DNA of 64,000 nucleotides, from positions 44,294,771 through 44,358,770 of the forward strand of contig NC_081380.1 in assembly GCF_030684315.1 (NCBI RefSeq), in the 5' to 3' direction. A program made the position numbers and the translations under genes. Position 1 is the stretch's first letter, and every line of letters begins with the position of its first letter. This stretch comes from Stegostoma tigrinum (lineage: Eukaryota). A model generated the notes under the pieces. The model was not told the DNA's origin, did no database searches, and was given only the letters and a program-made list of their open reading frames with translations. Positions 13,933 through 64,000 of this stretch are shown one piece after another.

Positions 13933-15262
13933 AAGTTTCAATCATATCCTCCCTCATCCTTCTAAATTCATCCAGTACAGATCCAGAATCTTCAACTGCT
14001 CCTCATATGACAAGCCTGCCATCCCTCCTCTGGACCTCCTCTGAAGCAAGCACACCCTTCCTTAGATACAGGGCCCGAAACTGCTTTCAATATTCCAAAC
14101 GTGATCAAACCAAGAGCCTCAGCAGAACATCTCTGCTCTTGTATACTAGCCCTTTGAAATGAATGTTAATATTGCATTTGCCTTCCTAATTGCAACCTTA
14201 ACAGAATCCTCAACTAGGACTCTCAAGTCCCTTTGTGCTTCAGAATTCCAAGGCCTTTTCCCATTTAGAAAATGTTCTATGCCTCTATTGTTCCTACCAA
14301 AGTGCATAACCTCACACTTTCCCACCTTGTATTCCATCTGCAACTTCTTTGTCAATCCTCCTGGCCAGGCCTTCTGCAGCCTCCCCACTTCCTCAACAAC
14401 TATCTGCCCCTGCACCTATCTTTATGTCATCTGCAATCTTAGCAAAAATATCCTCAGTTCCTTTTTCCAGATTGTTAATCTATAATATGAATAGTTGTGG
14501 TTCCACCTCTGAACCCTGCAGAACTCCACTAGTCATTGACTGCCATCCTGAAAAAGGCCCCTATATCCCTACTCTCTGCCTTCTGCCAATCAGCCAATCC
14601 TTTGTCTATGCAAGTATCTTGCCCTTAACATCATGAGATCTTATCTTATTTAGTAGTCTGCTGTGTGGCACCTTGTCAAAAGCCTCTGGAAATCCAAATA
14701 GATCACTTTTGATGACTATCTTTGTCTAACTTGCTCATTATTTTCTCAAAGAATTTTGGCAGATTTGTCAGGCATGACCTCCCCTTGATGAAGTCATGCT
14801 GACTCCGCCCTGTTTGGCACCTCACAATCTCCTCCTTAACAATGGATTCTAACATCGTACCAATGACCAAGGTCAGGCTAACTGGCTTATAATATACTGT
14901 CTTTTGTCTCTCTCTTCTTAAACAGCGGTGTTATTTTGGCCATTTTCGAATTCTCTAGGACCTCCCTCACTCCAGTCATTCCCGAAAGATCACAATTAAT
15001 GCCTTCATAATCTCCTCAGCGATCTCCTTGAGAACTCTGGTTCAGATGATTTATCCACTTTCTGACCTTCCAGTTTCCTCACCTCCTTCTTCTTAGTGAT
15101 GGTCTCTACACTCATTTCGGTCCCCTGACTCTCTTGAATTTCTGGTATACAACTGGTGTTTTCCAATAACAAAATGGATGCAAAGTACCTCTTCATTTCC
15201 TCCATCGTTTCTTTGTTCCCTGCTACTACTTCTCCAACCTCATTTTCTAGTGATCCGATGTC

Positions 15263-15332
15263 CACTCTTGCCTCTCCCATATCTTTTACATATCTAAAAA
15301 GATATGTAAAAGATATGGGAGAGGCAAGAGTG
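15263..15332. repeat. Perfect inverted repeat, 33-bp arms, 4-nt loop
   Basis: cactcttgcctctcccatatcttttacatatct-aaaa-agatatgtaaaagatatgggagaggcaagagtg. Confidence 0.95.
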
Positions 15333-16402
15333 ATCTTCTTTTATATCACAAGCTATCTTACTCTCATATTTCATCTTTTCCCCTCTTACTGCTTTTCTAG
15401 TTATCTGGTTATTACAGGCTTCCCAATCTTCTACTTTCCTACTAACGTTCATCACATCGTACCCTTTTCCTTTTGCTTTTATAGTGTCCTTGACTTTCCT
15501 TATCAGCCATGGCTACCTCATCCTCCCCTTAAAGTGTTTCTTCTTCCTTGGGACAAATTTCTGCTGTGCATCCCGAATTACCCCAGAAACTCCTGCCATT
15601 GCTGGTCCAGCATCTTCCCTGCTAGGCTTCCCTTCCAATCAATTCTGGCCAGCTCCTCCCTCATGTTGTTGTAGTTACCTTTACTTAATTGCAATAACTG
15701 TTACTTCTGATTCCTGCTTCGCCCTCTCAAATTGCAGGGTGAATTCGATCATATTATGGTCATTGCCCCCAGGGTCTCTTGCATCTTCAGCTTCCTAATC
15801 ACATTTGCCTCATTACACATCACTAAATTCAGAATTGCTTGTTCCCAAGTGGGCTATATCACAAGCTGCTTCAAAAGGGCCATCTTGTTGACATTCAACA
15901 AATGCCTTTTCTTGAGATCCACTCCCAACCATGATTATTGTAGTAATGCTTTCACGACATGCTTTTTCTACCTCCTGGTTGATTTTCTTCCCCACATCCT
16001 ACCTACTGCTAGGAAGCCTGTACACAACCCCTATCAAGGTCTTCTTGCCTTTGCGGTTCCTCAATATTACCACACAGATTCTATGCCTTTAAACTTTATG
16101 AATCACTTCTCACTATCAATTTAATTCCATTTCTTTCAAGGCAACTCCAACCCCTCTGCCCAACCTTTCGATAAGACATGCATCCTTGGATAATTAGTTA
16201 CCAGCCCTGAGCCCCTTGCAGCCACATCTCCATAACATAGTATCTGCCAATTTCAATCAGCACTACAAGCTTATTTATCTTGTTTCATATACTATGTGTA
16301 TCCAAGTACTAACACTCAAGTCCTGCATTGAATGTTTGTTTTCGTATTTGCTGTGCCTGAAATTAGGTTCCTGACCCATTCCATACATTCTGTCATACAT
16401 TT

Positions 16403-18916: not shown

Positions 18917-19042
18917 AGTGATAATGGGAACTGCAGATGCTGGAGAATCCAAGATAATAAAGTGTGAAGCTGGATGAACACAGCAGGCCAAGCAGCATCT
19001 CAGGAGCACAAAAGCTGATGTTTCGGGCCTAGACCCTTCATC
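18917..19042 (-). mobile_element. Solo Penelope pLTR end (family A), truncated in the hammerhead core
   Basis: Near-exact reverse complement of 31169-31293. Confidence 0.9.
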
Positions 19043-28649: not shown

Positions 28650-31294
28650 TCCATCCACAACCTCCACAGCCAGCAACCCCAGAGAAGACAGCCACATTGA
28701 GCCCTGCTGAATTTACACCATTCCCCGAGACCTCCCCCGACGGAAGACGAGCGGTCAGTCCTCAGCAAGGGGCTCACCTTTGACACCTTCCACCCTCCCC
28801 TCACGCATCAACAATTACCAGTCACGTCTGGACATTGAGCAGTTTTCCCGCCGCCTCCACCTCCACGCTTACTTCTCTAACCGGGAGCCTAACCCTCCCT
28901 CCACTGACCCCTTCACCCACCTCCAACACAAGTCCACCTCCTGGACACCACCCCCCGGGTCTCCTACCCTCCCTCGACCTCTTCAACTCCAACTGCTGTC
29001 GAGACATCAACTGCCTCAATCTCTCTACCCCTCTCACCCACTCCAACCTCTCCCCTGCAGAACGAGCAGCCCTCTGCTCCAATCCCAACCTCACCATCAA
29101 ACCCACAGACGAAGGAGGCGCAGTTGTAGGATGGCGCACTGACCTTTACATTGCTGAGGCTGGACGCCAACTTTCTGACACCACCTCTTACCGCCCCCTT
29201 GATCATGAACCTACCCCCGAGCACCAAACCATCATCTCCCAAACCATCCATGACCTCATCATCTCAGGTGACCTCCCATCCACAGCCTCCAACCTCATTG
29301 TTCCCCAACCCCGCACGGCCCGTTTCCATCTCCTTCCCAAAATCCACAAACCCGCCTGTCCTGGTCGACCTATTGTCTCAACCTGCTCCTGCCCCACTGA
29401 ACTCATCTCCACCTATCTGGACTCCATTTTCTCCCCCTTGGTCCAGGAACTCCTTACCTACATCTGTGACACCACCCACGCCCTCCACCTCCTCCAGAAC
29501 TTCCAATTCCCTGGTCCCCAACACCTCATTTTCACCTTGGACGTCCAGTCCCTATAGACCTGCATTCCCCATGCAGATGGCCTACAGGCCCTCTGCTTCT
29601 TCCTGTCCCGCAGACCTGACCAGTCCCCCTCCACCGACAACCTCATCCGCCGAGCCAAACTCGTCCTCACCCTCAACAACTTCTCTTTCGATTCATCCCA
29701 CTTCCTACAGACAAAGGGGGTGGCCATGGGTACCCGCATGGGCCCAAGCTATGCCTGCCTCTTTGTAGGTTACGTGGAACAGTCCCTCTTTCGCACCTAC
29801 ACTGGCCCTAAACCCCAACTCTGCCTCCGTTACATTACTGTATCGGCGCCACCTCATGCTCCCAAGAGGAGCTCAAACTGTTCATCCATTTCACCAACAC
29901 CCTCCACCCCAACCTTCAGTTCACCTGGACCATCTCCAATACATCCCTCACCTTCCTGGACCTCTCAGTCTCCATCTCGGGCAACCACCTACAAACCAAT
30001 GTCCATTTCAAGCCCACCGACTCTCACAGCTACCTGGAATACACCTTCTCCCACCCACATTCCTGCAAAAATTCCATCCCCTATTCCCAATTCCTTCGCC
30101 TCCACCGCATCTGCTCCCAGGATGAGGAATTCCACTCCTGTACATCCCAGATGTCCACGTTCTTCAAAGACCACAACTTTCCCACCGTAGTGGTCGAGAA
30201 CGCACTCAACCGTGTCTCCCGCATTTCCCGCACCTCATCCTTCACATCCCACCATAACCGCCAAAAGAGAATCCCCCTCATCCTCACATGCCACCCCACC
30301 AACCTCTGGATCAACGCATCATCCTCCGACACTTCCGCCATCTACAATCCGACCCCACAACTAAAGACATTTTTCCAACCCCACCCTTGTCTGCCTTCCA
30401 GAGAGACCACTCTCTCCGCGACTCCCTTGTCCGCTCCACACTCCCCTCCAACCCCACCACACTCGGCACTTTCCCCTGCAACCGCAGGAAGTGCTACACC
30501 TGCCCCCACACCTCCTCCCTCACCCCCATCCCAGGCCCCAAGATGACTTTCCACATCAAGCAGATGTTCACCTGCACATCCGCCAATGTGGTATACTGCA
30601 TCCGCTGTACCCGGTGTGGCTTCTTCTACATTGGGGAGACCAAGTGGAAGCTTGGGGACCGCTTTGCAGAACACCTATGCTCGGTTCACAATAAACAACT
30701 GCACCTCCCAGTCGCGAACCATTTCAACACCCTCTGCCAGTCCTGAGATGACATGTCCATCCTGGGCCTCCTGCAGTGCCATAATTATGCCATCCGTAGG
30801 TTGGAGGAACAGCAACTCATATTCTGCTTAGGAACCCTGCAGCCGAATGGTATTACTGTGGATTTCACCAGCTTCAAAATCTCCCCTCCCCGAATGCATC
30901 CCAAAACCAGCCCAGCTCGTCCCCGCCTCCCTAACCTGTTCTTCCTCTCACCTATCCCCTCCTCCTGCCTCAAGCCGCACCTCCATTTCCTACCTACTAA
31001 CCTCATCCCGCCCCCTTGACTTGTCCGTCCTCCCCGGACTGGCCTATTCCCTCCCTACCTCCCCACCCATAGTCTCCTCTCCTCCTATCTTCTCCTCTAT
31101 CCATCTTCAGTCCGCGCCCCCCACCTTTCCCTATTTATTTCAGAATCCTCTCCCCATCCCCCTTTTCTGACGAAGGGTCTAGGCCCGAAACGTCAGCTTT
31201 TGTGCTCCTAAGATGCTGCTTGGCCTGTTGTGTTCATCCAGCTCCACACTTTGTTATCTTGGATTCTCCAGCATCTGCAGTTCCCATTATCTCT
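28650..31294 (+). mobile_element. Near full-length Penelope-like retroelement (Neptune-type), RT + GIY-YIG, inactivated
   Basis: TIKPTDEGGAVV, LLPKIHKP..GRPIVS, FTLDVQSL*, QTKGVAMGTRMGPSYACLF, linker CNRRKCYTC, NVVYCIRC..YIGET..RFAEH; stops and frameshifts; catalytic DD missing after LRYI (~29836); 3' pLTR with hammerhead motif. Confidence 0.95.
31163..31199 (+). ncRNA. Minimal type I hammerhead ribozyme motif in the Penelope pLTR
   Basis: CTGACGA-A-GGGT(CTAG)GCCC-GAAA-CGTC at 31167-31194; palindromic ACGT helix III; helix I very short. Confidence 0.7.
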
Positions 31295-33875: not shown

Positions 33876-34340
33876 CTACTTTTATTGATGATTCCAAAAC
33901 AGACATCAACTTCCTCAAGATCACAAGTCCTTTTACAGGACAAGAGCTGAATTACTATAGCTCAATTGCTGTTTAATGGTCAATGAACATCTTGTTTCTT
34001 CCCATTTTGTGAAGTTGCAGCTTCTGTATGACTGCAAGTTGATCAAATAGCTCTCATCTTACAAAGTTTCGTCCTTTGCCCATGTATTGATCATTATGGT
34101 CTTTCTATCTCCAGTGGACTCAAACAGAACTTCCATATAGCTTCTTTGACTCAAAGTAACTGCAAGGAAACTTGGTTTCTGCTTTCAGCCAAAATGGCCT
34201 TTCCCCTTGATAATAATTAACTCTCCCTGAAGCTGATATCCAAACATCTACAAATTGATTTCTTTCCAAAACTGCCACAGTGTTCAGGGAGACTCTTTGA
34301 ACACCTCTCACTTCTTCACACCACCAACACAATACTCAAT

Positions 34341-34560
34341 ATAATAAAATGTGAGGCTGGGTGAACACAGCAGGCCAAGCAGCATCTCAGGAGCACAAAA
34401 GCTGACGTTTCGGGCCTAGACCCTTCATCTGATGAAGGGTCTAGGCCCGAAACGTCAGCTTTTGTGCTCCTGAGATGCTGCTTGGCCTGCTGTGTTCACC
34501 CAGCCTCACATTTTATTATCTTGGAATTCTCCAGCATCTGCAGTTCCCATTATCTCCTCT
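34341..34560. mobile_element. Perfect palindromic Penelope pLTR mini element (family A)
   Basis: 89-bp identical inverted arms 34341-34429 / 34431-34519, 1-nt spacer, ~40-nt tail; hammerhead motif 34429-34456; TSD acaatactcaatat 34329-34342 / 34561-34574. Confidence 0.95.
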
Positions 34561-35264
34561 ACAATACTCAATATGTATGGTTTGTTAGTGTTGAGGATTG
34601 CACACTGGAAAGAAAGAAGTAAACTCCACAGTCCTATGTAAATTTAAATTGATAAGCCCACAGGCAAAGAACATGCCTCTATGGAAATTCTGTTTAACAC
34701 AGCAGTAGAGATTGTCTCTTGTTGAGTTACCACCCCATGTGACTCAGCTGTTACTGAACTGTACTTTTAGCCCATTAGGAATCAGTATTCGGAGCATAAA
34801 AATCGAGTGTCATTCTTTATAATATTTCTGCATGATCTATTCAGCACCAGGCAACAATACTGCCTCAGTCTTTCCACAGAATGATCTGCTTGTTTCTTGG
34901 TCCTGGCTGTAACAAATAGTTACAGAGCCCATATTAACAGCTTTTGATTTCTACAAAAAAATTCCTCAATGAGACCAGTTTCTTACATTTTTTTCACACC
35001 CACACACCTCAGTACTATTTCATTTTTGTGACCTAGAATTAATCGTGGCCACAATACCCAACATCTTTGTGTCTTGCACTGAATTGGCTGATTTAATGGT
35101 ACATTATTGAAAAGATTTTATATTCACATACATGGAAAAAGATTTTATACTAAAACACTGTACAGACAGCAATCACAGCAGGCTACTTGGGTGCTTACTA
35201 GATTATGCAGGGAACCATCAGTTTCAAAATAGAACAGCAGAGAGATGAAGAGCTGTAGAATACT

Positions 35265-39837: not shown

Positions 39838-42800
39838 TCATAGAAGCATAGAATTTACAGTACAGAAGGAGGTCACTCAACCCATCATGTCTGTAGTTGC
39901 TCCTCAAAGGGCTACTCAGCTCATCCCATTCTCCAGCCCTATTTCCATAGCCCTTTAATCATGTTCAAATATATATCTAATTGTCTTTTGAAAACTCATG
40001 TGGAATCTGCATCCACTACTCTTCCAGGTAGCTCATTCCAAATTCTAACAACTCTCTCTGAGTAAAGAAGTTTCTCCTCATCTCAATTCTAATCCTCTTG
40101 TTTATAATCTTGAAATTGTGACCCCTAGCTGCTGACATACTAACTAGTGGAAACAGAACATCTTCTTTACCCAATTAAAATTGTTCATAATTTTGGATAC
40201 TTCAGCAAGGTCATTGCTTAATCTTGTTGCTCAAAGGCTAATAAGCCCCAATTTCTCTAATCTTTCCTTGTATTTAAAACCCCTTATTCCTGCTTTCATT
40301 CTAGTAAATGCAATTCGTACTCTCTCCAGGGCTTTAGCATCCTTAAATAAGGTGCCCAAACTGACCACAACACCCCAAATGCGGTCTGATCAATGATTTG
40401 CAGAGATCCAGCATCACTTCCTTTCCTTTATATTCCATGTCCCTGTTTATAAACCCAAGGATCCTATTAGCCTTCTTAACAACTGTTTCAATTTTCCTGG
40501 CCACCTTCAGAGAATTACACAGGTGAACCCTGCGGTCCTTGCGCTCCTGTACTCTACTCAAAATTGTACCATTGACGTTACATTGTCTCTCCATGTTGCT
40601 TTTACCAAAGTACATTACCTCACAATTCTCTTCAATGAAATTTATCTGCCAGGTGACTTCCCATTTGGCCAACTTGTCAATGTTCCCCTGAAGTCGCTTT
40701 GCGTCATCCTCACAATTCACTATTGTCAGTAGCTTAGTATCATCTGTAAATTCAGCAAGTTTGCCCTGAACACCAAATCCAAATTGTTTACATAAATCAA
40801 AAAAAAACAACAGTCCCAACATCCATCCTCTGGGGAACTTCATTTTCAACATGTCTCCAAACTGACCCACTGACTGTCATCTAAACCTACCCTGTACTTC
40901 TTATCTTTTAGCTAACTACTAATCCACGCTGTCAAAGACTCGTCGATCCCAAACATTTCAAATTTGCTAACCGACCTGCCACATGGCACAGTATCAAATT
41001 TTCCGGAAGTCCAAATATACAACATCCACAGCACAACCCTCACCCATTGCCTGTGTCACCTTGTTAAAGAACTCAGTCAAATTTGTCAGATACAAATTTG
41101 TGTCAGGTTTCCCACTACTGACATCAAGCTGACAGGTCTGTAGTTTCCTGGGTTATTGTTTGCCCTTTTCTTAAACAATAGTGTCACATTTACAATCCTT
41201 CAGTCCCCAGGGCTAATCCTGGAAAATTTCTGTCAATGGCTCCGCAATTTGTTCCTTTACCTCTCTCAGCAATCTAGGATGCAGCCCATCAGACCTAGCA
41301 ACTTTTCTATCAGGTGTGTTGCCAATGTTTTAGCACCTGTTCTTGATCTTTCACTATACTGCTCGGTTGCTCAACATCCATATTTTAAATTAAGCCGTTG
41401 TCACCATTTTCCAATTTGGTAAAGATAAAAACAAGTACTTATTTAGTACTTCTGCCATATCCTTTACTTCAGTGAGCAGCTTATCCTGCTTGTTCCTTAT
41501 GGGTCTTACTCTATCTTTCACTAACCTTTTACCATTAATAGTTTGAAGAACATTTTACTATTTGTTTTAGCATAGTCTGCCTTCTGTTCCTCATGGTTCC
41601 TTTTAGCATTCCTCATTCCAGCCTTAGTGTCTATCCTATATTTGAGATATCCTTCCTAATTTTTATTGCTATTAATATTCCGGTATGCATCATACACCGC
41701 ATTTTTCTTCCTTATTTCTTATCAATATCTTTAGTCATCCAGGATACTCTAGTTTTGGATACCCGGTATTTATTTCCTGGGGGTATATACTTTGCTTGCA
41801 CTCTATTCATTATTCTTTTGAAATTCTCCCATTTTTCATCTGTCATTTTATCCACCAAAATGTGTTTCTGATCAACCTGCTCCAGTGTGACTTTTAGACC
41901 CCTAAAATATGTCCTTTTCCTGGATGGAATCTTTATCATTGACTGATTTTTATCCTTTTCCAACTTAATATTGAACCTAATTATATTATGATTGCTATTT
42001 CCCAAAGGCTCCCTCACTCTGGTGTTCTCCATTTGGCCTGTCTTATTCCATGGGAGCAGATCTAGAACAGCTTCCTCCCCACTATGACTGGAAACGTGCT
42101 GTTCCAGAAACTTCTCCTGCACTCACTTCAGGAATTTCTCCCCCTCCATGCCCCATGTGATACTTCCCCCCCCAGTCTACCCTATAGTAACTGAAATCAC
42201 CAACTATCATAACACTCCTTGTCCTGCAAATTCCCATAATCTCCCTAGACGTCTCTTCTACTTTCTTCCCACTATTTGGAGGTCTGTAATAAATACCCAA
42301 CAAAGTCGCTGCTACCTTTCTGTTTTTCACCTACAACCAGAGATTCTATTGCAGTAACTGGCAATGATACTATCTTTGACCAAGACTGTTGCACCTCCTC
42401 CCTTTTCACCCGCCCTGTTTCTACTAAAAGTCTTATAACCCAAGATTTTAAGTATTCAGATAACAAGGTGTTGATCTGGAAGAATGCAGCAGGCCAGGCA
42501 GCATCAGTGAAGCAGGAAAGCTGACGTCTCGGGTCTGGACCCTTCTTCAAATTTGCTAACCGATCTGCCACGTGACACAGTATCAAATTTTACGCAAGTC
42601 CAAACAAACAACATTCACAGCCTTCAGAAGAAGGGTCCAGGTCTGAAACATCGGCTTTCCTGTTCCTCTGATGCTGCCTGGCCTGCTGTGTTCATCCAGC
42701 TCTACACTTTGTTATCTCAGACTCCACATCAGCAGTTCCTATTATCTCTATGTTAAGTATGCAGTCCTGTTCTGGCGATGCTTCTGTCAATACTGCCATA

Positions 42801-44318: not shown

Positions 44319-45656
44319 TTGTTCAGGCTCCCACATAGCCAACATAACCATTACTCTTGAATGCCTATTTGCTTGGGTCAGGCACTAGCTGTACACTTCA
44401 GTGGCTTGAACTCAAATCCACATTGGTTGAGATAAGATTGCTATCTCCATTGGTTACAAGAGTACTTCATGTAACGAGGTTCTGTATAATACTGAAAGGA
44501 CTGCATAGAAATAGCACTCGTTCTCAGAAAAGGGAGAGAAATGGGAATTTGTTTAACATTGGCAGAGTAAGATTTGCTCCCTTGAGGGCGAAGTTAGGAT
44601 GCACAGTGTCGTAGAATGGAACAATTTTTATTTGGCACTCCTGCTTCTCCTGGCCCCACAAAAATAATTTTCACACTTAGCTTGAACAGTCTCTGTTTTC
44701 TTACTGAATGAAATATTGATGGTAAATAGCTAAAATTTCTTTGAGGAGAATAGTAAGTACCTAGTAAGAGTCTTGACTTGCAATGAGTGTTGAAGCTCCT
44801 ACGTGGTGTCCAAATAGACAAAGTGATTATCTGGCTGACAGCTCTGGGAGGGAACACTTAGAAGTAATGTGGTGATAAGTCTACCACTTCCATTTTAACT
44901 TGTCTACTGCCTGTTTTCCTGTGGGTGGAGAGAGTTAAACTCATCCAACTAATTCTAGTGATGATAATAAATTGAAACAGCCGCTAACAAAACATTTACT
45001 TGCTGACTTTGCTGAAGCAATGTCAGCTGCAAAGTTTGAGAGTTTCTAGAAAAAGTTAAACACTGAATATAATGAAGACATTTCCTGTGGAGTTTCATGC
45101 AATAAATCTTCCCAAAAATCTGCTTTTTAGAAAGGAATTGGGAAAGAACAGATTTTGCAAAATAAAGTAGATATTTCCGAAAGAAGTTGTAAACAGAACC
45201 AGCTTTAAACAAGCGAAATCTGTGACTTTGACAGGAGGCTGAGGTTGGGCCATATATCAGAGATGAATAGAGTGAGGAAGTGTTTGGGAAACAGTTAGTA
45301 AATTATATGCTAGCCAGTCAGGCTGTCTCCAAGGGTGTGGAGAACCATTGCCAGAAAGGCAGCTATATGCATGCTATTCACAAGCAAGGATCTCTCTACC
45401 TGGGTTCAACACCAGTAAATTAACACAACCAGCAGGGTGGCTATTAACATACTGAATTTTAGCTGCACCCCTGCAGTCATAAGTTAGAGTTCCAAGACTG
45501 TCTCAAAATTATAAATCTGGCAGCAAGGAGAGCCAAGTTTCATCAAAGTTCTTGGTTATACATGAGTGTCACTGGTGAAATTGGTGGGCTCGGTTGTTTC
45601 ACCCTTCCAGCTTGGAGGAGAGTGAAAGCCATTAAGTGGAGAAATCTTGAAGAAAA

Positions 45657-46182
45657 GAGACAACAAAATGTGAAGATAATAAAATGTGAGGCTGGATGAA
45701 CACAGCAGGCCAAGCAGCATCCAAAACCAGCCCAGCCTGTCTCTGCCTCCCTAACCTGTTCTTCCTCTCACCCATCCCTTCCTCCCACCCCAAGCCGCAC
45801 CTCCATCTCCTACCTACTAACCTCATCCCACCTCCTTGACCTGTCCATCTTCCCTGGACTGACCTATCCCCTCCCTACCTCCCCACCTATACTCTCCTCT
45901 CCACCTATCTTCTTTACTCACCATCTTCGGTCCGCCTCCCCCTCTCTCCCTATTTATTCCAGTTCCCTCCCCCCATCCCCCTCTCTGATGAAGGGTCTAG
46001 GCCCGAAACGTCAGCTTTTGTGCTCCTGAGATGCTGCTGGGCCTGCTGTCTTCATCCAGCTTCACACTTTATTCTCTTGGATTCTCCAGCATCTGCAGTC
46101 CCCCATTATCACTAGGCCAAGCAGCATCTCAGGAGCACAAATACTGACGTTTCGGGCCTAGACCCTTCAGCCGAGACCCTTC
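45657..46182. mobile_element. Composite Penelope pLTR insertion (forward copy inside an inverted copy)
   Basis: Outer TSD atcttgaagaaaa 45644-45656 / 46183-46195; inner duplication aggccaagcagcatc 45707-45721 / 46114-46128; intact hammerhead motif 45985-46012. Confidence 0.88.
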
Positions 46183-46229
46183 ATCTTGAAGAAAATATGT
46201 CTTTCCAGGTCCGCAACTAAGAATCATTC

Positions 46230-57919: not shown

Positions 57920-58880
57920 CATTAATATATATTAGAAACAGTTGTGACCCCAGCACAGTTTCCTGCAAAACCCCAGTGGTCATGGGTCTTAAACCTGAAA
58001 AGAATCCTATAGCCCCACTTGCTGTTTCTTGCCCATGTCCCAGTTCTCTATCCAGGCCATTATTATACCTCCAACACCTTGGGCTCGTACCTTGTGATTT
58101 AACCTTATATGAGGTATCTTATCAAATTCCTTCTTTAAGTCCAAATGCAGCACACCCACTGGCTTTCCTCTGTCCAGTCACTGGTTGACACTGCTGCAAA
58201 ATAACTCCAATAAATTAGACAGACATGCTTTCCCTTTCATGAAGTCATGCTGACTTTGAGATTAGGATTTTCCAAATGTACTGCTATTACTTCCTTAATA
58301 ATTGATCCCAATATTTTCCAACAACTGAAATTAGGCTAATCAGCCTTCTAGTTAACCACTTTATGCCTCCCTCCCTTTTTGAATAAGGGTGCCATGTGCA
58401 TAGTTTCCCATTCCTCTAGTAGTTGTCCAGAATCAAAGGATTTTTGGCAAATTACAGCAAATATAGTCATGATCTCTGCAGCTACTTCCTTTATGATCGT
58501 AGGAAGCAATCAATTCCACATGATTAATCTGACTTCAGCCTCATTAGTTTGTCTGATACTACTTCTTAGAGATGGTGATGGCACTTAATTCTTCATCTGA
58601 TTTCTTTAGTATGAATAAATGTTTGAAGTGTCTTTCACTGTAAAGATTGCTGCAAAATATTTATTTAACTACATTGCTATTTTCTTGTTTCCCATAACTA
58701 TCTCCCCAGATTCATTTTCTAAGGGGCCGATGTTCACTTTGACCGCTCTCTTTTTCATTTAAAGAAGCTCTTATTGTTAGCTTTTATATTCCTTGCTAAT
58801 TTGCCCTTGTAGTTTATTCTGTCTTATATTATCTTTTTAGTCGTCCTTTGCTAGATTCTGAATTTATTCCAGCCTTCGTA
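57920..58880 (-). mobile_element. Old CR1 ORF2 fragment
   Basis: cttatcaaattccttctttaagtcc and ccctttcatgaagtcatgctgact (KAFD and SQHxFMKG motifs on the minus strand). Confidence 0.7.
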
Positions 58881-59367
58881 CTTTAGAGGTCAGTAAAGAT
58901 TTTAAAAATTAGACAAAGTGAGATCCAGGGTACTTACTGAGGGAATAAATCCACAAGATTCCATGGTTATGAACAAACAGCGATAAACTTTACGACACAA
59001 AAGTAATACAGTTGACAATCTACGCTCCATTATTTCTAACACCCAGAATTAACATGTTGTAAATGTGGCTAATCATTTGTGATCAGATAACCCACAGCAC
59101 ACATTAAACAACAAACACAATCAAGGCAAATCCCATGTATTTCTCAACAACTACCCTCGAGACATCAATGGCATGGTGGTTCATCAACTCTCATTAAACG
59201 TCACAAAGAATTATAATTCTTCTCTTTTTCCGATTTGCTCTTAAATCTCCATCTCCAGACTCATTGCATTGTGGCTGCCTCAATGGCTGCTCCCGTTCTC
59301 GTTGATCAACCTCCTCTCCTTGGCCTAAGTTCCTCTGGCCTCCAAAAACAACACTCCAGTACTTACT

Positions 59368-59561
59368 AAGATAACAAAGTGTGAAGCTGGATGAACACAG
59401 CAGGCCAAGCAGCATCTCAGGAGCACAAAAGCTGACGTTTCGGGCCTAGACCCTTCGTCAGAGCTCTCTGATGAAGGGTTTAGGCCCGAAACGTCAGCTT
59501 TTGTGCTCCTGGGATGCTGCTGGGCCTGCTGTGTTCATCCAGCCTCACATTTTACAATCTT
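59368..59561. mobile_element. Palindromic Penelope pLTR mini element with two hammerhead motifs
   Basis: Minus motif 59434-59461 (CTGACGA..GAAACGTC), plus motif 59468-59495, 6-nt spacer; possible TSD tacttact / tacttgct. Confidence 0.93.
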
Positions 59562-61604
59562 TTACTTGCTGTTTCACCACACCATTTACATGATTGACCC
59601 ACTTCAGTTTCAGCTTAATGGTTACTGCTAAGATGTTGATGATAGGGAAGTCCACTGATGGCATTGGCATTAAAATCAAGTGTGGTTAGGAGACAGACAA
59701 TTCTAACAGAGGTGTGTCAGATAACAAAGGGAAAAGACAATGTAAAACCCTGTTGTTGGACGCAGCACACGTGGCTCTGCTGCTGGAGGATGAATATTTA
59801 TTATCAGAGTCCACTACATGAAACATAACATCGCTTGGGTCACCATGACCATCATGGCTTGAATTGCTGTTAGCACCAGATAGTTGCAGACTGATTATCA
59901 CAGCAGATCCTGAGCACTTGATGGAATAACATCAAGCTTCTTTTGGAGTTGCAATGCAGTAGATTGAGGACCTCACTGTACATGTCACCTCTAGTCAATA
60001 TTGTTGTTTAAGTAGTTATGGTCTAAGAAATTAATGCTTGCTTGGGCACAAGGAGAACACTGCTCTCTTCTTCTAATAGCTTTAACCAACAAACAAGGCT
60101 TTTTTTAAAAAAATGTCTCATCCGAAGCATGGTACATCTGTAAGAATGGGATATTCCCTTGGTTAACACTTGGAAGTTCGACCTCACTTGTGTGTTCAAG
60201 CCCTGATGTATAGCTCTAAACCAATGAACTTTCAACCTACGAGACAAACTTTATACACTGAAATATCTAAAAAGCAATACATACACATATGAGGAGGGGT
60301 TACATGAATAATGTCATTTGCTTTCCACTTAAAATGAATTACAGGTTCAACTTGTCAATGATATTGTTTTGATCTGAATTCTCCCTCTGCAAGCATCTAT
60401 TGAGCCTGTAGACCAATTGAAAATGTCATAACTAAAACTGAAATTTTATTGTTAGATAAGCATACTAACAGTTATGGAGGAAAGGTGGCTAAACAGAGTT
60501 AAGATACGTATCAGGAATAATACAACTGAATTGCTTGGAGGGGCCTAAGGCTTACTCTTGTTCTGTTGGTTGTTAGAGATTAATCTTGCTTATTACTTAT
60601 ATGGGAAATTAACCCAGGAGCAAGGATGGAAGTTTATAATAACAAAGTTTGAAAAATGGTGTTTATTTTAAAAAACTGTCCGTAACAATGAGAATATCCT
60701 GAGAATAAGGCTTGTTAATGAGAAGCTTGCAATTACATACTTAGTTATAGTGAGGTTCAACTGTATCACTTAGACATTACATAGTGCAAATTTCAAGGGC
60801 AAATAGGTTAATAACCTCTTAACAAACACAGACTGTGCACGCTGATGAAATTACTGTAACAGGAACTTAGAAGGAAAGAGCGTGAAGCGGAGATTGCTAA
60901 ATGCGCTGCTTCCTTTCGGAAGGGGTAGTTTATTTGACTCAATGAGACACATAACGAGCCTAGATCTGCAGTTACAATTTGCTGTTTATCTGCCTTTTTT
61001 CCCACCCCCAGCTCCAACGGAAGTCCATGTGGAACAGCCTGGCTAGCCTCAGCCTAACCTCCCCCATCTGGAAGGAGACTAACCAGCCTCTGGGCTACTT
61101 TGAACCCTTCCCAGCTGCTGGGTTTGGTTTTTTTTTGTTTTTGCGAGGTTGAGAGAGCATATTTGTATAAATGATTGCCACATCCCCAACCAGCTGTTGA
61201 CCCCACTCTAGTCCTGTCTATGGCATGTTTTTCATTTCTCCTCACCACAGTTTTGAGCTGACCTTGGTGGAGTTAGCACGCTAACGACCATCCTTACGTG
61301 TGAATGCCGGGATGAAACAGACAAAAGATGCACAGTCTAGTTCCTGAGACCGGTGTTTCCCTGCAGGCTAGTATCAGGGACCTCAGTCAGAAAAGGTAGA
61401 ATCAGTGCACAATCATGAGATGCAGAGGTAGCTGGTTACTGCATAGTTCATTTTTGATTTTTTAAAAAAATGATTGAGCGGGTTTGATAACATCTTGAAA
61501 AAGAAAATGCAAAATAAATTCAAGAAAAGATTCCAACCAGTACACTTAGAGGAAAGAGAAAAGCAAAACTTGCCTTGTACAACACAAGAACGCAGAGTCA
61601 AAGA

Positions 61605-62705: not shown

Positions 62706-62866
62706 CTCAGAATAAGTTAAACAAGTGGCTTCTGATTGAGATATCTTGGGCTCATGTAGAATATGGACAGAAAGGTAACTGTTGATTTAAATTATGCTAT
62801 CCAGTACTGGTGACCTGTCTGTGGGCAGGGAATCTTTCATTCAGGCAGACCCAATTGTAGGGAATC

Positions 62867-63852
62867 CCGCTGTGGCTTCCTCTACATTGGGGAAACCAAG
62901 CGGAGGCTTGGGGACCGCTTTGCAGAACACCTCCGCTCGGTTCGCAATAAAACTGCACCTCCCAGTCGCAAACCATTTCCACTCCCCCTCCCATTCTTTA
63001 GATGACATGTCCATCATGGGCCTCCTGCAGTGCCACAAGGATGCCACCCGAAGGTTGCAGGAACAGCAACTCATATTCCGCTTGGGAACCCTGCAGCCCA
63101 ATGGTATCAATGTGGACTTCACCAGCTTCAAAATCTCCCCTTCCCCCACCGCATCCCAAAACCAGCCCAGTTCATCCCCTCCCCCCACTGCATCACACAA
63201 CCAGCCCAGCTCTTCCCCTCCATCCTCCACTGTGTTAAAATTGGTCTTGGTGAGACACAATAACAGCTCAAAGGAAGCCTGAGAAAGCAGTTACATTAAA
63301 AACTACAAGCTAGTAAATTATGCAATGCTTATAGCAACCAGAAAGATCTCTCTTTGTATTTAATATTTAAATAATTAACTTTTCTCCTTTAAAGAAAATG
63401 AACTGACATCACCAACAAACTTTGGAAGGAATCTTCTTCCATTCCATCCCCTTCTTCCATTCTGCTGCAAGAAACCCACTTTATTCCCCTTCCCCTCCAA
63501 AACCAGTCCAGCCTGTCTCTGCCTCCCTAACCTGCTCTTCCTCTCACCCATCCCTTCCTCCCACCCCAAGCCGCACCTCTATCTCCTACCTACTAACCTC
63601 ATCCCACCTCCTTGACCTGTCCATCTTCCCTGGACTGACCTATCCCCTCCCTACCTCCCCACCTATACTCTTCTCTCCACCTATCTTCTTTTCTCTCCAT
63701 CTTCAGTCCGCCTCCCCCTCTCTCCCTATTTATTCCAGAACCCTCACCCTATCCCCCTCTCTGATGAAGGGTCTAGGCCCAAAACGTCAGCTTTTGTGCT
63801 CCTGAGATGCTGCTGGGCCTGCTGTGTTCATCCAGCCTCACATTTTATTATC
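62867..63852 (+). mobile_element. 5'-truncated Penelope-like insertion (GIY-YIG end + foreign filler + pLTR)
   Basis: YIGETKRRLGDRFAEH..LQEQQLIFRLGTLQPNGIN; ~39-bp tandem units 63140-63230; filler 63231-63495; pLTR with G-to-A mutated hammerhead 63761-63788; TSD ttgtagggaatc 62855-62866 / 63853-63864. Confidence 0.9.
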
Positions 63853-64000
63853 TTGTAGGGAATCAAAGTTTGGGACACATATTTTGAAACGAATTCTCTC
63901 AATTCCAATTTCAATGAACTACTTTACGAATGCAAGGGATTTGAACAAAAAAGAAGTGGCATTATTTTCTTGATGGCTGCTCTCAAAACTGATAAGTGCT

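Follow-up and report, generated by a model that had tools for sequence, protein, structure and literature searches.

The locus described here lies at positions 59368-59553 of the 64,000-nt stretch of Stegostoma tigrinum DNA that was analysed as a whole (the window), and consists of a head-to-head pair of two repeat ends of ~90 nt that together make up a 186-nt hairpin; an inverted repeat scan returned 96-nt arms at 59368-59463 and 59466-59561, with 91% complementarity. The left arm (59368-59463, minus strand) is a tail-less 3' pseudo-LTR end of a Penelope-like element (PLE) with the alleles of a copy at 31167, and retains 2 nt upstream of the hammerhead core. The right arm (59464-59553, plus strand) is likewise a tail-less pseudo-LTR end but with the alleles of a copy at 63761, and retains 4 nt upstream of the core. 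They meet at a perfect 8-nt palindrome (59460-59467), and the centre is in the same zone as those of the palindromes at 34341 and 36404. The right arm had earlier been extended to 59561, which is corrected here to 59553/59554, base 59554 being compatible with both element and flank. Positions 59554-59561 are common to the flank in a relative, so that two of nine apparent differences between the arms belong to the flank; these eight bases of host DNA (plus strand) match the reverse-transcription start region of the element at six positions, likely a microhomology that served in priming. On the other side, the 8-mer 59360-59367 (plus strand) matches 59563-59570 at 7 of 8 positions (31 of 1000 random site pairs do as well) and resembles a target-site duplication, a candidate that was dropped because it lies 9 nt away from the true right junction and because the matched flanks of the relative include both copies. 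No target-site duplication was found around the insert, where the best exact match is 5 nt, and neither arm carries the 31-nt tail seen on other copies.

Nine loci of the window carry pseudo-LTR units of this family, some single and some in palindromes, with inverted copies at four loci and a tail on 5 of the 13 arms scored. The family assignment is based on a long decayed copy of left-arm type (28711-31292, plus strand; the 31167 copy), which has remnants of a reverse transcriptase (RT) and a GIY-YIG endonuclease in several frames and is separate from the 59 kb locus. Its GIY-YIG match to Pfam (E=0.0002, 22.1 bits) falls just under the cut-off of 22.6 bits, while the Atlas value to GIY-YIG clusters is 0.97 and two cysteines lie inside the motif. 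The linker before the endonuclease includes a CX4CxxC motif, and the RT-like stretch, with five fragments that have no Pfam RT match, reaches an Atlas value of 0.97 to a cluster named reverse transcriptase fragment. A CX2-5CxxC linker motif is described as present in Neptune and Nematis and absent in Penelope and Poseidon in the accessible text of PMC8557442, and on the definitions given there the sequence identifies the arms as 3' pseudo-LTR ends of an endonuclease-bearing (EN+) PLE with a Neptune/Nematis linker. The tail lies between two RT start sites (PMC11167929, accessible portion), and by this definition the 31-nt extension on some copies is the PLE tail. The family is abundant, at about 126,000 contigs per run, a figure that is not a copy number, and pattern scans for the unit gave no loci in viral contigs, metagenome contigs or prokaryote genomes. 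The element is a putative Neptune rather than a Nematis.

The source of each arm was assessed over 85 aligned pseudo-LTR positions (4-88), with polymorphic sites defined from the five other young loci only. The arms differ at seven of the 85 sites, five of which (positions 6, 56, 78, 84 and 88) vary among those loci, and at all five the left arm agrees with the 31167 copy and the right arm with the 63761 copy, as the initial annotation had proposed. Over the whole alignment the left arm has three differences from 31167 and six from 63761, and the right arm three from 63761 and ten from 31167; the left arm has no private change in its 85 nt, and four of its five alleles are the ancestral state common to the older family. 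The arms of the palindrome at 34341 were confirmed to be identical (0/85 differences), with a private variant at position 72 in both. Descent of the two 59 kb arms from one template followed by point mutation could be argued from the two of seven differences that have no match in other window copies and from one differing site being a CpG. Under such a history, however, the chance of the observed agreement is 0.0009 (5 of 7 sites), or 0.0035 without position 88, which is possibly flank (4 of 6), or 0.014 when the CpG site is also removed; moreover, the replacement of 787 bases described below is left unexplained, and this origin is very improbable. Arm typing supports an origin of the palindrome from two source copies. 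The types are well separated in the body of the element, where 31167 differs from 63761 and 45985 at 36 of 255 sites and 63761 from 45985 at 11 of 256, so that on body sequence they are distinct lineages. Calling the two sources subfamilies, as was done initially, is a loose usage, since nesting of the pseudo-LTR alleles is not strict: among the eight young arms, sites 56/78 and sites 56/84 each occur in all four combinations.

Other insertions in the window provide comparators. At 34329-34574 there is an ordinary one-step palindrome with concordant arms, a one-armed tail and an exact 14-bp target-site duplication. Target-site duplications at the 34, 36 and 42 kb palindromes measure 14 bp (exact), 14 bp (two mismatches) and 12 bp (one mismatch), respectively, and in all three the tail is confined to one arm. 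Their arms appear by sequence to be single-source, clearly so at 34 kb but on weak evidence at 36 and 42 kb, where the pairs are old and the arms differ at 13 and 15 of 90 sites. Judged as a one-step PLE palindrome, the 59 kb locus has neither a duplication around the whole insert nor single-source arms with a one-armed tail. The old duplication-flanked palindrome at 42458-42748 has ~70 nt of non-element filler between its arms, and at 18919-19042 a lone tailed arm on the minus strand, for which no duplication was found, stops where palindrome centres usually lie and may be half of a broken palindrome. The 63761 copy itself, of right-arm type, is a single 5'-truncated, tail-less copy (62855-63864, plus strand) with a 12-bp duplication, and its body is interrupted by ~260 nt of unrelated sequence (63220-63480). 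Elsewhere in the genome, among the 15 joints listed of 445 (59405-59427 to 59464), a shortened inverted arm is joined to a forward arm whose first base lies 4-6 nt ahead of the hammerhead core, hinting at a preferred 5' stop in that place.

A second discordant pair, 45673 and 45985 (five differences in 47), was considered as another two-template insertion and rejected upon finding two nested duplications. The outer, older pseudo-LTR on the minus strand (45644-46195) is bounded by a 13-bp duplication (45644-45656 / 46183-46195), and the inner forward copy (plus strand) by one of 15 bp (45707-45721 / 46114-46128), the inner and outer copies having different alleles. In the one resolvable case within the window (1/1), mismatched halves accompany a second event. 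Short stuttered stubs are present at both outer ends of this nest (45657-45673 and 46169-46185), a single case in which self-targeting is possible.

Contig comparison drew on four of 18 sequencing runs, with 32 pieces listed of ~212,800, 15 joints of 445 and 40 letter rows of 102; the cover of run X11 is limited to 6 of 30 bins, all outside the flanks, and gives no information on orthology. In a relative ~5% diverged (run X1), one 2169-nt contig aligns to both flanks, 58800-59367 with 27 differences in 568 and 59554-60200 with 34 in 647; each alignment stops precisely where an arm begins, neither arm is present, and 787 other letters (contig positions 579-1365) lie in between. In this one contig of one relative, a 787-base segment stands in the place of the 186-base hairpin. 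The initial annotation had looked to an ortholog with a single arm as a check, and the finding of neither arm in the one relative examined decides nothing between the models. The X1 contig is unbroken across the segment, unlike the own-species contigs at the arms, and in a simulation which assumes that contigs break at shared 31-mers, 0 of 4000 787-mers at <=5% from a high-copy consensus were without such a word. It follows that the 787-base segment would be old or unique, and hence it is probably ancestral. The old-family letter at 59426 accounts for 95% of summed depth in X1 and for 6% in X12 and X13 (a measure of depth, not of copy number), which indicates that the young family expanded mainly after the split from the relative. 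It might be supposed instead that an ordinary palindrome had one arm overwritten later by gene conversion, the 787-base difference being a separate matter, either loss of target DNA or DNA that the relative gained at this site. The four allele combinations do show exchange or homoplasy in the family, and the 7/8 end repeat would fit, but two independent events at one site would be required, the tract would have to cover the whole arm and stop at the centre, neither arm is tailed, and the segment in the relative is not a young high-copy repeat; we regard this history as improbable.

Own-species contigs from two samples (X12 and X13) lead from unique flank into both arms without a single difference over 58800-59391 and 59533-60200, and so fix the alleles at positions 78, 84 and 88 on both sides; they stop 24-29 nt inside the arms. 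Since no X12 or X13 contig among those listed spans the palindrome centre, and palindromes are reported to trouble assemblers (PMC8557442), it could be speculated that the genome keeps two neighbouring palindromes with their spacer and that the assembler jumped between them. On the other hand, there is no N among the 64,000 bases, the complex nest at 45 kb and the perfect palindrome at 34 kb are both resolved, and X12-X15 contain 0.94-0.95 of 179 sampled words; none of this is decisive, but collapse appears more improbable still than conversion.

What the data show at 59 kb is arms of two sources and genuine outer junctions, at a place where 787 bases were replaced and where both duplication and tails are lacking. 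The reading we favour, at a probability of roughly 55%, is that two separate insertions ~0.8 kb apart were fused at the palindrome centre by a deletion, the odds given here to all readings of the locus being a matter of judgement. By this account, two PLE insertions from different source copies would have occurred at different times once the relative had split off; a later deletion would have fused them, with loss of the inner arms and the 787 bases between. PLEs often insert as palindromes of ~190 bp. Two such insertions would be direct repeats of each other and, as single strands, fold strongly into hairpins (-102 kcal/mol as DNA), so that a break at the hairpin tip with end-joining, or annealing between the copies, could leave the left arm of the first joined to the right arm of the second; the annealing route would need a crossover near the centre. 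The same product would arise in a variant where priming at 59554 gave new cDNA of the second copy, and the older element, rather than the proper target of this cDNA, was the place of its capture. In this proposal the sequence of the events, the intermediate with two insertions and the manner of repair are inferred.

Fusion of two insertions would explain the mixed arms, the lost DNA, the absent duplication and the absent tails in one step. It gains from the contrast with the other palindromes, 3/3 of which have the duplication and one-armed tail that this one lacks, and from the 45 kb pair, where the discordance is sequential, with two nested duplications. Close neighbours are common at the local density of 5-7 young loci in 64 kb, which places another copy within 0.8 kb of 6-16% of copies. 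Precedents exist for both routes: deletions between Alu elements leave a chimeric element, with a median of 615 bp and 449 of 663 below 1 kb (PMC2041999), and human palindromes are described as breaking at the centre and joining by end-joining (PMC4940405). The mark of an Alu-type deletion, a chimeric repeat where the outgroup has extra DNA, is seen here. Several observations count against fusion. The one ortholog, which has neither arm, predates both insertions, and no intermediate was observed. Each arm keeps to its own type as far as the centre, with a difference already at position 6, so that a plain homologous crossover would need a window of ~14 nt, or CpG decay, and only the tip-break route gives such purity easily; that route is documented for AT-rich human palindromes, not for those of PLEs. 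The centre falls in the zone of integration-born centres, the left arm, with no private changes, does not look older than the right, and the terminal 8-mer match does a little better than expected by chance (3%). The claim of a deletion also depends on the presence and length of a segment in one contig of one relative. The initial annotation had offered, as one of two options, a second copy inserted head-to-head at the first; the sequential order is the part retained, in a different form that includes the deletion of 787 bases.

Its other option was one integration with two RNAs. The two sources stand, but integration in one step is a second choice and unlikely, because the locus has no duplication and no one-sided tail and has lost 787 bases, which fusion explains in one step. 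In such an event, two element RNPs, or one protein dimer holding two transcripts from different loci, would have begun priming on opposite strands, either at points separated by 787 bases or at both ends of a break that had been resected. Each would have copied a pseudo-LTR as far as its usual stop, and the cDNAs would have been joined head to head with deletion of the target between them. Several features fit this: the arms are pure up to the centre, both outer ends are at the tail-less RT start, the centre is in the usual zone, and the left arm has no private change. The Anolis protein, a predicted dimer, cuts both strands and extends on both (PMC11167929), tumours contain L1 bridges in which a pair of inverted, 5'-truncated copies meets at the 5' ends (10.1101/2024.08.27.596794), and two L1 cDNAs can join (PMC13526784; two-copy bridges also in 10.1101/2024.12.14.628481). 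Set against this, mixed templates and a large target deletion are two rare things to find together, unless both came from one break. All three duplication-flanked palindromes look single-source (34 kb clearly, 36 and 42 kb weakly) with a one-armed tail. The two types differ at 36 of 255 body sites and in their share in the relative, and may not have been active together. Hammerhead cleavage is, furthermore, dispensable for insertion in vitro according to the accessible text of PMC11167929.

The junction of the arms creates a minimal hammerhead motif on the minus strand (59428-59467), with a junction-made helix I of 6-7 bp, a helix II of 4 bp, no helix III, and a predicted cut between 59434 and 59433; the minimal core of the right arm on the plus strand (59468-59495) has a helix I of 2 bp, as in ordinary copies. 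A 6-bp helix I on the minus strand had been reported initially and is confirmed (7 bp with one more G-U), the other eight of nine pattern-matched motifs having 0-2 bp. This helix arises when one arm retains exactly 2 nt upstream of the core, and a length of >=6 bp results from six of the 81 offsets modelled. The minus-strand motif has the core boxes, the helix II and the helix I of 4-6 bp expected of the minimal PLE type, and is without a partner in the same RNA or an accessible fold. In a transcript the complement of the motif precedes the motif, and the predicted hairpin fold is at -158.6 kcal/mol, with the hammerhead fold 48.9 kcal/mol worse, or 39 worse for the nascent chain. Minimal PLE motifs are stated, in the accessible part of PMC4209133, to need a second motif for helix III and not to cleave as monomers. 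Here the second motif is on the opposite strand, an antisense partner, so that one RNA cannot form the dimer. The proposal that the locus reflects a dimeric ribozyme is not supported: the helix comes from junction geometry, the transcript is predicted to fold as a long hairpin, and the partner motif is antisense. On these models we read the junction hammerhead as a by-product, sequestered in the hairpin.

An Rfam search of the window at E up to 1 gave 12 matches, all on an unrelated hairpin at 15.3 kb, and no hammerhead match. That hairpin (15258-15337) is near-perfect, 80 nt long, has sub-threshold microRNA matches and is probably another small palindromic repeat. Ordinary copies (31157-31200, 63751-63795 and 45975-46020) have a helix I of only 2 bp and, ~25 nt upstream of the core, a pyrimidine-rich run that ends in AG. 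A spliced 5' copy that supplies the helix has reportedly been described for Drosophila virilis, and might apply to the ordinary copies here.

The element, its inverted structure (PMC3846280) and the PLE hammerhead were already known, as was repeat-mediated deletion for Alu and L1. No description of mixed-arm PLE palindromes was found in a literature search whose coverage was largely outside subscription journals and supplements, and the origin of the inverted ends of PLEs is called undefined in the accessible text of PMC8557442. Because the family is abundant and its sources differ at several sites per 90-base arm, typing the arms of palindromes, split by presence of a duplication, would be a direct test of one RNA against two. 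The 59 kb locus is also a caution for such typing, as a mixed palindrome can be a deletion scar. If the fusion reading is true, PLE palindromes join the repeats that delete host DNA. It is possible, though we think it doubtful, that PLEs build head-to-head insertions from two RNA molecules, one primed per target strand by a protein dimer, even across a gap with target deletion. In that event, arms would usually match since one source locus dominates a cell, the 59 kb locus would be a place where two sources met, and mixed-arm palindromes with clean duplications should be present genome-wide, revealing the origin of the inverted pseudo-LTR. The two-source palindrome is real and is most likely the scar of a deletion.

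Among known systems, as presented in the accessible portions of the papers cited, the closest are the EN+ PLEs of the Neptune clade (PMC8557442, PMC3846280, PMC11167929), which are alike in the C-terminal GIY-YIG with two internal cysteines, the CX4CxxC linker and the pseudo-LTR, and, at the other loci of the window, in the ~31-nt tail on one end, the head-to-head inverted copy and duplications of 12-15 bp. The 59 kb locus differs from these in its two-source arms, the lack of both tail and duplication, and the replacement of 787 bases. It shares with the minimal hammerheads of metazoan PLE pseudo-LTRs (PMC4209133), for which opposite-strand pairs 100-700 bp apart have been noted, the core boxes, the extra base before helix II, the palindromic 15.2-16.2 region and the absence of helix III, but its helix I is made by the junction and its motif is hidden inside a hairpin of 90 bp. 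Alu recombination-mediated deletion (PMC2041999) offers a similar outcome, one chimeric element of two subfamilies with more DNA in the outgroup and a size below 1 kb; there, however, the outgroup keeps both parent Alus, whereas at 59 kb both parents would postdate the split, and the unit is palindromic, with the change from one source to the other in its middle. The centre-to-centre fusion of PATRRs (PMC4940405) gives the same kind of product, to which two palindromes contribute an arm each and in which these arms meet centrally, although PATRRs are >90% AT, non-homologous and on different chromosomes, while the repeats here are of ~50% GC and would be homologous neighbours. Lastly, L1 bridges formed by two synchronous insertions (10.1101/2024.08.27.596794; PMC13526784) also consist of inverted 5'-truncated copies joined at their 5' ends, with 3' ends outward and an accompanying rearrangement, but these are somatic events of human L1 that link distant sites; at the 59 kb locus synchrony is no more than a possibility.
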